A stretch of 50,076 nt of DNA from Candidatus Micrarchaeia archaeon (GCA_038870455.1 JAWCPB010000003.1:1-50076), one strand, 5' to 3'; positions 4,431 through 10,793 are shown, counted from the first letter of the stretch. Numbers and translations: made by a program. Notes: generated by a model from the letters alone, not told the origin.

Positions 4431-5489
4431 CTATCGCAGCAGGCCGGCGAACCAGATGTCGAGCAGGAAGAGAATGAGCCCGAACACGAGAAGGGTAGTG
4501 AAGATAAAGACGGGCAGGAGCTTGAAGCCCGCGCGCTTGCTGCCAGTCTGAATGATTGAGATGATGAGGGCTGCGCTCAGCGAGGTGAGCAGCGAGGCCG
4601 CGATCGCGAACACGAGGAAGTCGCCCGAGGAGATCGTGGGGGCCGAGGGGGTGAGCAGGCCGACGCTCGGAAGGCCCTTGAGAGGCGGAAGCTGAGCCCA
4701 AATAAACTCGAGCACCGAGACGAGCTTGTAGGAAACGGCGTACAGGAAGGGCGCGCCGGCCAGGCTGGCGAATGCTATGAAGATGATGTACATGAGCATC
4801 GAGGCGGAAACCTCCTTGTAGAGAATCTGCAGGTTCTTGATGTCGATACCTGTGCGCTCGAGAATCTCGCCCATCTCGCCGCCGCTCGCCATGCCCTGCT
4901 TTATGAGCACAATGGTGCGCGTGAGGTACTTGGAGTTGAAGCGCGCTGCGAGCTTGTCGAGCGAGGCGGCGAAGGGCTCGCCCCCGAAAGTCCTCTTGGC
5001 CGCCAGCTCAACCTCCTGCGACAGCAGGCCGAACTCAGGACGCGCGGCGTACCATAGCGACTGGTCGACGGGCATGCCGGCGCGCACGTTCGCGGCCGCG
5101 AGCTGCAGGAAGTCCGGCAGGTAGAGTTCGACGACGCGTTTGCGTGCATCGATGCGCAGCAGCAGAAATACATAGGCGAGAAGAATGATGATGCCGGAGA
5201 AGATGAGCAGGCAGGCGAGCAGGAGAATAACCACCGAGAGCGTGCCCGCGGTGGCCGAGAGCGACGGTGAGAGGGCCATGAGCAGGCGGCCGAGCTCCGG
5301 AACCGTTCGGGGAAGGAACTGCAGGATGGAGAAGAACGCGAGGACCGAGACGAGGATGCTTGAGAGCATGACGAAGCCCGCCGCGCTCTCGGCCGGCACA
5401 TCGAGGCCGGCCGCGCCCAGCGCCTCCTCTATCTGCCTCACGCGGCTTCTCGGAAGCAGCCGCCCGACAGCGGCGAAGGCGCCTGTCAT
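4431..5489 (-). CDS. Type II secretion system F-domain platform protein, TadC/EpdK-like (single T2SSF domain)
   Basis: Polytopic membrane protein with a cytoplasmic T2SSF-like helical domain (LPDFLQLAAANVRAGMPVDQSLWYAARPEFGLLSQEVELAAKR). ATG 5489 follows the upstream TAA stop by 1 nt. Confidence 0.75.
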   Translation of the reverse strand: MTGAFAAVGRLLPRSRVRQIEEALGAAGLDVPAESAAGFVMLSSILVSVLAFFSILQFLPRTVPELGRLLMALSPSLSATAGTLSVVILLLACLLIFSGIIILLAYVFLLLRIDARKRVVELYLPDFLQLAAANVRAGMPVDQSLWYAARPEFGLLSQEVELAAKRTFGGEPFAASLDKLAARFNSKYLTRTIVLIKQGMASGGEMGEILERTGIDIKNLQILYKEVSASMLMYIIFIAFASLAGAPFLYAVSYKLVSVLEFIWAQLPPLKGLPSVGLLTPSAPTISSGDFLVFAIAASLLTSLSAALIISIIQTGSKRAGFKLLPVFIFTTLLVFGLILFLLDIWFAGLLR

Positions 5490-5490
5490 G

Positions 5491-6411
5491 TTACACCTCA
5501 AACCTCGGCCTCGAGCTCTCTATCATCGACATGAAGATGAACTGCACGAGGCCCAGCAGCACGAAAGCGGCCGCGAGAATCTTCGCGTCGGCCGGCACAC
5601 TCAGGAAGGAGATGAGGATGATGGCAAGCGCCACGCCGAGGCTCGGGATGATGATGCCGAAAATCATGTAGAACATGGCGAGCGGGTTGAGCTTTTGGCC
5701 GTAGGACTTGATCTCGATGACCTGCTCGCGTGAAAGCTGGTCGAGGATGTTCTCGAGCGCGGCGGCCACGTCGCTGCCCGAGCGCAGCGAATTCACGAGC
5801 TGGAGGATGACGCGCCGCATGGCCGCTGACGGAACCTCCTCGCTGACGTCGTGCATGGCGACATCGGCCGGAACGCCCACGTTAATGCGCTCGAGAATGC
5901 GCGAGAAAATCCTGCTCACCTCGCCATAGTCTTTTGTTATGTGCAGCATGGCGTCGAAAAGAGGGACGCCAGCGTGCAGCTCGATGAGCAGGTGCCTGCC
6001 GGCGAACACCAGGTCCTTGTCGATCTCGCGCGCCTTCTGCTCCACCCTAACTCTCGGAACCTGAAGGCCGTACCAGAAGAACAGCGGAAAGGCGACAACT
6101 ACGACAGGCAGGAGTAGCAGCGTGCTGACGTTCGCGGTGACGAACACCATGAAAAGCAATACTATCACTATGGCGGTCAAAATGACAGCAGACGTGAAGG
6201 TCTTGGCGACAAAGGAAACGGGCTCGTCGGCCATGTCTGCCTGGCGCAGCCTCCTCTTCAGGTCGGGAAACCTCGCCGCAATGGAGGCGAGGAAAACGCG
6301 AAACGCGCTCGGCCCCTCGGCGGGAGCGAGCTTCGGGGGCGCGTGAGGCTCTCTCGCGAGGGCAGAGGGCCTGCGCTCTGGCTCAATCCGCTCCTTCCTC
6401 GGTTCAGCCAT
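5491..6411 (-). CDS. Type II secretion system F-domain platform protein, TadB/EpdJ-like
   Basis: Contains DLVFAGRHLLIELHAGVPLFDAMLHITKDYGEVSRIFSRILERINVGVP plus flanking TM helices. It is a paralogue of the downstream gene, giving the split platform seen in Tad/Epd systems. Confidence 0.75.
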   Translation of the reverse strand: MAEPRKERIEPERRPSALAREPHAPPKLAPAEGPSAFRVFLASIAARFPDLKRRLRQADMADEPVSFVAKTFTSAVILTAIVIVLLFMVFVTANVSTLLLLPVVVVAFPLFFWYGLQVPRVRVEQKAREIDKDLVFAGRHLLIELHAGVPLFDAMLHITKDYGEVSRIFSRILERINVGVPADVAMHDVSEEVPSAAMRRVILQLVNSLRSGSDVAAALENILDQLSREQVIEIKSYGQKLNPLAMFYMIFGIIIPSLGVALAIILISFLSVPADAKILAAAFVLLGLVQFIFMSMIESSRPRFEV

Positions 6412-6447
6412 GCCCAGCGCCTCGCTAATACCTCTTTTCCACGGTTT

Positions 6448-6843
6448 TTATTTCTTTGCGTTTGACGCGCCATTTCCCCCCTTGTCCTCTGTTCCCTTTA
6501 GACTCTTCTGCAGCGCCTTGAAGCCCTCTGCCCCCAGCCTAGGGCCGGCCAGCTCGGGCTTGGGCTTTCCCGCGCCGTAAACCGCCTCGGCAAGCCGCAG
6601 CGCCCGCACCTTGTTTATCTTGGCTATCTCGTTGAGAGCGTCCCAGTAGCTCATTCCGGCTATGTCAGGCGGAGAAGGATCGACGAAGCGCAGCTCGCCC
6701 GCCACGGCGAGCACAGCGGGCTTCGGCGGAAGCGCCTTCCGCTCAAGACCCCTCACCTCCTTGACAAGGTCAAGAAAAGACTTCGCGGCCGGTCTGGCAG
6801 CCTCAGGCTTGGCTTCGGGCTTGGCGGGCTCAGGCATTTTCAT
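6448..6843 (-). CDS. Hypothetical soluble protein in the pilus-machinery operon (Pro/Lys/Ala-rich ends)
   Basis: ATGA overlap with the ATPase stop. No TM segment, no class III signal peptide and no recognisable domain. Confidence 0.5.
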   Translation of the reverse strand: MKMPEPAKPEAKPEAARPAAKSFLDLVKEVRGLERKALPPKPAVLAVAGELRFVDPSPPDIAGMSYWDALNEIAKINKVRALRLAEAVYGAGKPKPELAGPRLGAEGFKALQKSLKGTEDKGGNGASNAKK

Positions 6844-9574: not shown

Positions 9575-9610
9575 AGGAATATAAACATAGCGAAGAAGCG
9601 GAGATGAGAG

Positions 9611-9619
9611 TTTTAAATA
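9611..9619. promoter_or_regulatory. TATA box (ttttaaata) in the 64-bp divergent intergenic region
   Basis: The box lies 20-28 nt upstream of ATG 9639 (a leaderless plus-strand gene). The same box read on the minus strand may serve the 8330..9574 operon. Confidence 0.45.
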
Positions 9620-9638
9620 GCAAAGCGAATACTCCCGC

Positions 9639-10793
9639 ATGGCCGAGGAGTTGGATATCACCAAGAAGGAAGTTTCCCCTGTCGAGGCGTTCAAGTTCCA
9701 GAACATGCTGTTCCAGCAGTTCGGAGAAGACGGCGTCAAGGTGTACGGCGCGCTGGGAGAGCACCGGAACGTGGGCGACCTCATGAACCTCACTGGGGTC
9801 AGCGAGAGCAGGCTGCTCGAGATACTCGACTTCATGGACAAGAATGGCATGATTGCCATGACAAAGGCCGCGGCGCCGGCCGCGCCGCCTGAGAAGGTGC
9901 TCACCGAGGAGGAAATCGAGGAGAAAAAGAGGATGGAGAAGGCGGGCAGGGAGAGGGTGCTGGAGATAAGAGAGGAGAAGCCTCCCGAGGAAGAGATGTC
10001 GCCTTTTGAGAAAGTGGTGTTCGACAAGTTCGGCAAGATTGGCCTGCGCGTGTACTCGCTCATCGACGGAGAGAAGACGGCTGAGGAGATCCTCGCCGAG
10101 ACGGGCATCAGCGAGGTGCAGCTTGTCGAGATGCTCGAGTTCATGGACAAGCAGGGAATCATCAAGCTCGAAAAGCCAGAGGAGGAGAAAGAGGAAGAAG
10201 AAAAGGAAGAGGGTGAAGAAGAGGAGAAGCCCGAGGAGGAGTTTCCCGCGCCGCTCATTGAGGAAAAAGGCCTCCCGCCGGCCGCGCCCGCCGCGGCGCC
10301 GCCTGAGGAAATAAGCGAGGAGGCGATTCCAATCGATGTTCCCATAAAACAGGCGCTGGGGGCGGTGAATCGCATCGCGCTCGACGCCGAGCTCGTGGCG
10401 AGGTTCGGCGGGCGAGCAAAGAGGCTTTATGACGCCATTGACAACAGGAAGGACACCGTGCGCCTGGCCCGCGAGACCGGAATGAGCCTGGAGGAAATGG
10501 ATGAGGCGCTCGCCTTCCTCGGGCAGCGGGGCGCGCTCGTCTTCGCCACGCTCAGCAGCGATGACGTGAGGGAAAGGTACGGGCTGGAGGGGGAGAGGAT
10601 TTACAACAAGTACGGCAGGGACGGCGTGCTGCTCTATGAGCTCATCGGAGTGGTCAAGAGCTTCCGCGACATGGTGGCGCTGTCGAGGCTGCAGCCTGAC
10701 AAGGCCGCGGACATCTTCCTGTACATTCACGACGTGCTCGCCATAGAGACGCCGCTCACAAAAGAAATGCTGTTCAAGGAACTCGGGAAATAG
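9639..10793 (+). CDS. Protein made of four tandem TrmB-like winged-helix modules separated by acidic linkers
   Basis: Four repeats follow the pattern F..FG..G..VY..(I/L).G...(A/V)(E/G)(E/D)(I/L)....G(I/V)SE..L.E(I/M)L(E/D)FMDK.G(I/M)I. An EEKEEEEKEEGEEEEKPEEE linker is encoded at about 10179-10240. Confidence 0.7.
   Translation: MAEELDITKKEVSPVEAFKFQNMLFQQFGEDGVKVYGALGEHRNVGDLMNLTGVSESRLLEILDFMDKNGMIAMTKAAAPAAPPEKVLTEEEIEEKKRMEKAGRERVLEIREEKPPEEEMSPFEKVVFDKFGKIGLRVYSLIDGEKTAEEILAETGISEVQLVEMLEFMDKQGIIKLEKPEEEKEEEEKEEGEEEEKPEEEFPAPLIEEKGLPPAAPAAAPPEEISEEAIPIDVPIKQALGAVNRIALDAELVARFGGRAKRLYDAIDNRKDTVRLARETGMSLEEMDEALAFLGQRGALVFATLSSDDVRERYGLEGERIYNKYGRDGVLLYELIGVVKSFRDMVALSRLQPDKAADIFLYIHDVLAIETPLTKEMLFKELGK

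Follow-up and report, generated by a model that had tools for sequence, protein, structure and literature searches.

A winged-helix and coiled-coil protein linked to the ATPase of type IV pilus-like loci in Micrarchaeota and other DPANN archaea

Introduction

DPANN archaea depend on physical contact with a host, and type IV pilus-like machines are leading candidates for this contact. Hamm et al. (2024, Nat Commun, PMC11291902) described two conserved pilus-like loci of cluster-2 DPANN and Undinarchaeota in which coiled-coil proteins (CCPs) are encoded beside CpaF and TadC. These CCPs were defined by a 'nucleopore-like' coiled-coil profile, were found by proteomics to be made in Ca. Nanohaloarchaeum antarcticus, and were likened to the viral sigma-1 attachment protein. 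Here we analyse a stretch of 50,076 nucleotides from a Candidatus Micrarchaeia archaeon (GCA_038870455.1, JAWCPB010000003.1:1-50076), hereafter referred to as the window, which is contig C3 of a 1.04-Mb genome in 51 contigs that is roughly 90% complete. At positions 4431-10793 of the window lies an operon that probably encodes the motor and platform of a type IV pilus-like machine of the Tad/Epd style, from a member of the Micrarchaeota (DPANN). On the minus strand, the gene order is a protein composed of a winged helix and a coiled coil (wH-CC), a FlaI/CpaF-like ATPase, a soluble protein of 131 amino acids (aa; hereafter the slot protein), a TadB-like protein and a TadC-like protein; a protein of four winged helices (4xwH) is divergently transcribed.

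This locus resembles those of Hamm et al. (2024) in that a gene for a coiled-coil protein adjoins the pilus ATPase and platform genes in a DPANN genome. Furthermore, the first gene of the corresponding loci in Woesearchaeota, a lineage listed in that study, is homologous to wH-CC through its N-terminal winged-helix domain (the head). Judged from its sequence, wH-CC would thus be a protein of the kind published as a DPANN 'coiled-coil protein', although the comparison with the CCPs NAR1_03220 and NAR1_01690 was made by description and not by alignment. The published study differs in listing no Micrarchaeota (cluster 1) and in mentioning neither a winged helix nor a 4xwH or slot protein. The first-pass annotation of the window had taken the pair of winged-helix proteins to be undescribed at archaeal type IV filament loci. 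This holds in part, because coiled-coil proteins had been linked to DPANN pilus loci before (PMC11291902); our literature searches turned up no account of the family of the head domain, its pattern of fusions, its occurrence in Micrarchaeota, the clade-restricted 4xwH partner or the slot protein.

The features of other archaeal pilus loci that bear on this one were reported by Makarova et al. (2016, PMC4858521), who found two tadC-like genes in euryarchaeal clades 1 and 2, noted that stand-alone major pilins are usual in archaea, and described a cytoplasmic coiled-coil protein (arCOG07564) at the ATPase/TadC locus of halobacterial subclade 4F, a subclade whose ATPases are also found in nanoarchaea.

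Results

Linkage of the head domain to one group of pilus ATPases

Relatives were counted in 201 genomes of the Micrarchaeota phylum, 152 of which are of good quality, and in 40 Micrarchaeota loci, 39 of them with enough sequence. A search with the single wH-CC protein identified relatives in 142 of the 201 genomes, and a profile of the head identified 191 (147 of the 152 good-quality genomes); two unpublished genomes (G198 and G029) were counted in the tallies of 142 and 191 alone. In 30 of the 39 loci, the next gene after wH-CC is that of an orthologous ATPase (49-93% identical), and the Micrarchaeota order is wH-CC, ATPase, a variable soluble slot protein, TadB and TadC. When the head profile was compared with 1.84 billion cluster representatives, 2880 matches were obtained at E<=1e-3, and a 381-aa subgroup of these was traced to genomes of Woesearchaeota/Nanoarchaeota. 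About 63 of 69 loci from these lineages have wH-CC, the ATPase (48-54% identical), TadB and TadC, followed by one to three pilins, and the head domain is present in 88 of 151 sampled genomes of the phylum that contains the Woesearchaeota. The proposal that wH-CC is linked to the ATPase, and does not lie at random positions in related genomes, is thus clearly upheld by the loci from both phyla.

The genome holds six T2SSE ATPases, four of which are paralogous and are encoded with split TadB/TadC platforms. The head is carried by the rod-like wH-CC protein on C3; at the paralogous locus C7a it lies in a gene of 266 aa directly upstream of the ATPase (E 5e-11), at C7b it is fused to the N-terminus of the ATPase (E 3e-9; hhalign probability 82%, E 1e-5), and at C8 a weak match was found at the ATPase N-terminus (E 0.027). 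All four paralogous ATPases therefore have a head nearby or fused to them. The head was neither adjacent nor fused to the unrelated ATPases encoded on C35 and C1. In a phylogeny of DPANN sequences, the window ATPase grouped with the head-bearing paralogues and the Woesearchaeota ATPases (98% in the Shimodaira-Hasegawa-like approximate likelihood ratio test, SH-aLRT) and separately from those encoded on C35 and C1, and the Micrarchaeota ATPase paralogues branched inside the head-bearing group; this was a quick tree with SH-aLRT support values alone, paralogues taken from one genome, and a root placed on two very long outgroup branches.

Architecture of wH-CC and its head

The wH-CC gene lies on the minus strand at 8330-9556, and its product has some 330 residues of coiled coil behind the winged helix. 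The first-pass annotation gave the protein a length of 414 aa, with a start at 9574; a GTG start at 9556, yielding 408 aa, is more likely, because the N-termini of the orthologues and the 408-aa database entries agree with it. A word-based homologue search with the whole protein returned 10 proteins, all of them unnamed or labelled 'chromosome segregation ATPase'. In the AF2 model (predicted local distance difference test score, pLDDT, of 83.5), in which residue numbers refer to the 414-aa form, residues 11-73 fold into a winged helix, followed by helices at residues 78-221, 229-362 and 370-413. The protein is thus predicted to consist of an acidic winged-helix head, an antiparallel coiled-coil hairpin made of the first two helices, and a C-terminal helix, which is conserved. 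Foldseek matched the rod to the cytoplasmic hairpins of chemoreceptors (e.g., 2ch7), Rad50 and the MukB elbow, and the head to winged helices of the ArsR, MarR and TFE types. No signal peptide was found, and the maximal mean Kyte-Doolittle value over 19 residues was 1.12; hydrophobic segments are lacking from all three accessory proteins, wH-CC, 4xwH and the slot protein.

Among 33 aligned orthologues, conservation was confined to the head and to a C-terminal motif, ExxFExKRxELxxLIxKMWE, with a rod of about 300 to 600 residues. The head domain (9356-9544, minus strand) has invariant T, D, W, L and Y residues and a median isoelectric point (pI) of 4.9, the pI of the whole of wH-CC being 5.4. 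Its third ('recognition') helix has a conserved acidic pattern, E-[ED]-W-A..L-E-[ED]-E, that lacks basic residues. The head scored below the cut-offs of all curated HTH families, with weak similarity to the Lrp/AsnC type, and is best regarded as a family of its own.

Two further arrangements of the head were observed. The top match of the head profile, protein P0011 (657 aa, from an ENA metagenome), has five tandem heads joined by linkers rich in Lys, Glu and Pro. A second family with a head and a helical rod (C1:55756-57300, minus strand; relatives L076-L090) comprises proteins of 510-670 aa with an ISTD[VI]D motif in the head, the gene lying directly downstream of that for ribosomal protein L10e in every relative examined.

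The divergent 4xwH protein

The 4xwH gene (9639-10793, plus strand) encodes a protein of 384 aa with a pI of 4.6, which makes it one of the most acidic long open reading frames (ORFs) of the genome, about 1% of which fall below pI 5. Its AF2 model (mean pLDDT 82) agrees with the earlier description of four winged helices joined by acidic linkers: the domains span residues 1-77, 118-178, 229-305 and 306-384, and the linkers are disordered. TrmB Pfam matches were obtained for 24 of 26 orthologues (best E 1.2e-11); for the protein of the window, TrmB remained under its cut-off and HTH_5 alone passed, narrowly (23.6 vs 22 bits). The top fold matches were to extended winged helices, those of TFE-alpha (Z 9.4), GATOR1 and RPC62, and according to the note of the fold-search tool itself, Z values of 8-9 are in the common-fold range for a winged helix. 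A Foldseek search of the model against PDB gave no match at E<=0.001, and the wider fold search gave generic winged helices alone. It had also been suggested that both proteins contain the same kind of winged helix. This is not borne out by hhalign (wH-CC family vs 4xwH: E 0.096, probability 0.6%), and the 4xwH domains are TrmB-like, unlike the head with its weak Lrp/AsnC-type similarity. The possibility that the repeats are peptide-binding domains of the PqqD/RRE type (motif G..IY.LIDGK.T..EI) was considered and dropped, its support being faint: PqqD matched five of 26 members (best E 0.056), and RRE structures gave Z values of 5.7-6.5.

Of the 201 genomes of the phylum, 82 were found to contain 4xwH. 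It occurs in nearly all genomes of families f1-f5, f8-f11, f14, f15, f17, f20, f22 and f24, and was not found in the genomes of families f6 (0/56) and f7 (0/36), nor did its profile match anything in 80 Woesearchaeota-type loci. It is divergent to wH-CC in about 32 of the 40 Micrarchaeota loci. As read from the coordinates, the two genes are no more than about 2 kb apart in roughly 60 of the 70 genomes listing both; the genomes in which the two are not close include G054, G064, G074, G104, G106, G123 and G139. 4xwH is thus confined to part of the phylum, being found in none of the 92 genomes of f6 and f7, and is not a general component of the pilus system.

The ATPase, the platform and the slot protein

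The ATPase (6840-8333, minus strand, 497 aa) is of the FlaI/CpaF/GspE2 type (Pfam T2SSE, 1.8e-36). It scored 255 bits against the NCBIfam FlaI model, which is under the cut-off of that model, and its best solved relatives are Archaeoglobus fulgidus GspE2 (2oap, 6e-67), FlaI (2e-53) and CpaF (8e-48). The TadB-like protein (5491-6411, minus strand, 306 aa) and the TadC-like protein (4431-5489, minus strand, about 352 aa) each have one T2SSF domain (Pfam 1.3e-16 and 7.3e-12, respectively). The former gave weak ArlJ matches in NCBIfam and its place after the ATPase is conserved in relatives; orthologues of the latter are 31-90% identical and their position is unchanged. The combination of a T2SSE-family ATPase with a polytopic T2SSF platform, here in two single-domain proteins, is that of the type IV filament (TFF) superfamily, and the assignment of a Tad/Epd-style core is supported by Pfam. 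The ATPase and the TadB/TadC pair are an ordinary core.

Between the ATPase and the platform genes lies the slot protein (6448-6843, minus strand), which is basic (pI 9.8) and has no Pfam match. Its N-terminal 70 or so residues align with the start of proteins of 75-1026 aa encoded in the equivalent slot of 24 Micrarchaeota loci, and its 131 aa represent the shortest full form of a family that reaches 1026 aa. In the Woesearchaeota loci, the ATPase and platform genes lie too close together to accommodate such a gene.

The three paralogous ATPase/TadB/TadC loci outside the window (C7 14344-19020, C7 26137-32405 and C8 17517-25265) adjoin pilin-like genes, and a fifth system, on C35, has a fused two-domain platform protein. 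At C1:21978-25946 (minus strand), the sixth ATPase, a divergent protein of 436 aa, is encoded directly beside two tandem FtsZ-like genes, an arrangement recalling the association of FtsZ with pilus loci reported by Makarova et al. (2016, PMC4858521). The DPANN operon was also encountered in many metagenome-assembled genomes titled 'uncultured Methanosarcinales archaeon' with 'binchicken' isolate names (L091, L093, L099-L101 and others); their ATPases branch among those of the Woesearchaeota, and the record titles look like taxonomic mislabels.

Gene junctions, promoter region and neighbourhood

The five minus-strand genes and their junctions, all of which were read from the sequence, are as the first-pass annotation described them. 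The stop codon of wH-CC (TGA, 8330-8332) overlaps the GTG start of the ATPase (8333) in a GTGA junction, with an ATG at 8324, and the ATPase and the slot protein gene overlap in an ATGA (6840-6843). A gap of 36 nt separates the slot protein gene from TadB, and one of 1 nt separates the TadB stop codon from the ATG of TadC (5489). With the GTG at 9556 as the start of wH-CC, the intergenic region between the divergent genes becomes 82 bp rather than the 64 bp first given. Two TATA-like boxes were recognised by reading the sequence of this putative divergent promoter region (9578-9619): TTTATATT on the minus strand (9585-9578), about 26 nt upstream of the wH-CC GTG, and TTTTAAATA on the plus strand (9611-9619), about 24 nt ahead of the 4xwH ATG. 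Since each box lies 24-26 nt from its start codon, leaderless transcripts are suggested for both genes.

Database relatives of the window proteins are labelled Candidatus Micrarchaeia/Micrarchaeota or 'Microcaldota'. 4xwH is flanked by genes for CGI-121 (KEOPS) and ribosomal protein S8e (10810-11734), as in many Micrarchaeota loci, and the conservation of this neighbourhood places the locus in a stable housekeeping region. On its other side, a CutA-like gene (3976-4302, plus strand) is convergent to TadC where relatives have a pilin; the same was observed in a genome of the same family (G116, L037). In loci L042, L045, L052 and L058 of family f5, from which the ATPase gene has been relocated, wH-CC is followed by genes for a membrane thioredoxin-like protein and a GT2 glycosyltransferase with five transmembrane (TM) segments.

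Pilins and prepilin peptidase

In many Micrarchaeota loci and most Woesearchaeota loci, a pilin of 140-200 aa with a class III signal peptide of the KGQAAMEYL type is encoded directly after TadC. A motif scan of all ORFs revealed no class III signal peptide on contig C3, so the earlier statement that pilins and a peptidase are missing is true at the locus. It does not extend to the genome, in which the search for class III signal peptides and a peptidase that the first-pass annotation had proposed identified four pilin-like ORFs (C1:65287-65865, C2:57789-58283, C7:14344-14802 and C36:4846-5340) and an A24 peptidase of 289 aa on C22, the only one of the genome. The four ORFs encode 152-192 aa and were recognised by the motif KGQ(A/S)AMEYL with a hydrophobic helix, without a Pfam match; the C36 and C2 ORFs are the most similar to the pilins that are locus-linked in relatives. 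The genes for the filament subunits and for the prepilin peptidase thus appear to lie on other contigs. The locus itself represents the standard version of the Micrarchaeota, inherited vertically, and is not a pilin-less oddity.

Discussion

Proposed role as a motor accessory

The reading that we favour, with moderate confidence, is that wH-CC is a soluble cytoplasmic accessory of the pilus motor whose head docks onto the ATPase. The acidity of the head and of 4xwH, the lack of hydrophobic segments and the fusions speak for protein-protein contacts at the ATPase rather than for DNA binding or export, and the GTGA overlap, indicating translational coupling of wH-CC with the ATPase, was also counted for this role. 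So were the conserved gene order, the grouping of the head-bearing ATPases, the near-universal presence of the head in the phylum and the proteomic detection of the CCPs of such loci in Ca. Nanohaloarchaeum antarcticus (Hamm et al. 2024). The acidic winged-helix head would bind the ATPase, probably at its N-terminal part, and the hairpin (about 140 residues per arm) and C-terminal helix might provide a spacer, a means of oligomerisation or a scaffold by which the motor beneath the platform is organised or regulated. We regard 4xwH, encoded divergently, and the slot protein as lineage-specific additions. The weakest step of this scheme concerns 4xwH, which may serve the same assembly as a multivalent adaptor for protein binding and not as a DNA-binding repressor.

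A predicted complex of the ATPase and the head scored 0.45 (runs 0.43-0.47; best control 0.00), with at least 93% of contacts agreeing between runs and a partner pLDDT of at least 78. The pass mark of this procedure is reached by 58 of 80 solved complexes and two of 110 mismatched pairs, and a pass at a score of 0.60 or less, as obtained for seven of the 80 solved complexes and for both mismatches, is more often wrong than right unless the guess is already likely. The prediction thus supports docking weakly and returned no interface, which is why we go no further than calling the docking model rather likely. Besides the weakness of this prediction, several observations weigh against a motor accessory. 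4xwH is TrmB-like and divergently transcribed, the classical arrangement of a regulator, and half of the phylum yielded no 4xwH. The wH-CC/4xwH pair of family f5 and of a few other genomes lies beside S8e and CGI-121 and the ATPase is 8-24 kb away on the same contig, so co-transcription is not obligatory. Finally, the second paralogue family of wH-CC adjoins rpl10e with no pilus genes near, indicating that the head can work outside pilus loci.

A broader proposal, which we consider possible but on the whole doubtful, is that the head is an unnamed docking or regulatory module of one DPANN pilus ATPase clade, always present in trans on a rod or in cis, and that, in one large Micrarchaeota branch, the rod, 4xwH and slot proteins constitute a new cytoplasmic scaffold under the platform.

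Other explanations

One or both winged-helix proteins could be transcription regulators that bind the shared divergent promoter and switch the pilus genes. The winged helix-turn-helix fold, the Pfam matches to TrmB, ArsR and HTH_24 (with TrmB in nearly all of the 4xwH orthologues), and best fold matches that include TFE-alpha and the MarR and ArsR regulators are consistent with this explanation, as are the divergence of the two genes over 82 bp with two TATA-like boxes, which is typical of autoregulated pairs, and the many unstudied regulators of archaeal pilus loci (Makarova et al. 2016, PMC4858521). However, 4xwH and wH-CC are both strongly acidic, the third helix of the head is acidic and contains a Trp residue, and the head is fused to ATPase N-termini in the paralogues. 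Moreover, wH-CC is still the first gene in operons without 4xwH, and a coiled coil of 300-600 residues with a conserved C-terminal helix is no feature of a regulator. We therefore regard regulation of the pilus genes as an unlikely function. The two proteins might also constitute a housekeeping module, acting for instance in transcription or chromosome organisation in the manner of RPC62 or TFE, that is a mere neighbour of the pilus genes. The persistence of the pair beside S8e and CGI-121 when the ATPase is away (f5), the location of the paralogue family beside rpl10e, and TFIIE_alpha Pfam matches in seven of the 26 4xwH orthologues would fit such a module. So would the fold matches of 4xwH to TFE-alpha (first domain, root-mean-square deviation, rmsd, of 2.7 over 69 residues) and to RPC62 (Z 8.2 over 129 residues, model range 12-305), but the rmsd of the latter is 16.2 and Z values of this size are common for winged helices. 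Furthermore, the head is adjacent or fused to one ATPase clade in two phyla and at all four paralogous loci, and the absence of detectable 4xwH from half of the phylum would be odd for a housekeeping factor; we judge this explanation to be quite improbable.

The published reading of the DPANN CCPs, based on their likeness to sigma-1, is that they are exported and attach to the host at the cell surface (Hamm et al. 2024). The long rod-like shape of wH-CC and a host-dependent lifestyle would suit such a function. Nevertheless, wH-CC has neither a signal peptide nor a hydrophobic segment, its N-terminal head is one that is common to, or fused with, cytoplasmic ATPases, and its hairpin resembles the cytoplasmic coiled coils of chemoreceptors and of SMC-type proteins. 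Surface attachment therefore seems to us very improbable for wH-CC, and the motor accessory role, if correct, would correct the published view of the coiled-coil proteins as surface attachment factors. A soluble head that is adjacent or fused to the motor in two DPANN phyla provides a testable handle on how pili are mounted and controlled in minimal cells. For the window itself, the outcome is mostly clarification.

Comparison with known systems

Systems of this kind have been published in outline before, and the one described here is a variant of them. Its ATPase-platform core is ordinary, and what sets it apart from every pilus studied is the set of conserved cytoplasmic partners. As in the bacterial Tad (Flp) system, there is one ATPase, of which CpaF is a clear homologue, and a platform made of two single-T2SSF proteins. 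However, no Flp pilin, TadZ/CpaE or outer-membrane components are encoded at the window locus, and the nearest solved homologues of the ATPase are the archaeal GspE2 and FlaI, not CpaF. With the Epd pili of Methanococcus maripaludis and the other systems of clades 1 and 2, the locus shares major pilins that often stand alone elsewhere in the genome. The two-gene platform is common in clade 2 too and therefore does not discriminate in favour of Epd/clade 1. The major pilins of Epd have about 70 aa, whereas the candidates identified here have 152-192 aa and the KGQAAMEYL motif, and the peptidase is the A24 protein and not a recognised EppA, which has nine TM segments; nor has a winged-helix/coiled-coil partner been described for the clade 1 and 2 systems (PMC4858521).

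Two further coiled-coil proteins can be compared with wH-CC. Like the putatively cytoplasmic wH-CC, arCOG07564 is a cytoplasmic protein linked to a pilus ATPase/TadC locus; the two were compared by description alone, and no winged helix is mentioned for arCOG07564 (PMC4858521). ArlX (FlaX), the motor scaffold of the crenarchaeal archaellum, is likewise a coiled-coil protein encoded with a FlaI-type ATPase, which it is thought to organise, and was the functional parallel suggested by the first-pass annotation. It is membrane-anchored and has no winged helix, whereas wH-CC is soluble, without a hydrophobic segment to serve as an anchor, and no sequence or fold match between the two was obtained in Pfam, NCBIfam and Foldseek searches. 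The scaffold of the broader proposal would be comparable in function to ArlX/ArlCDE or PilM/N/O, and unrelated to both.

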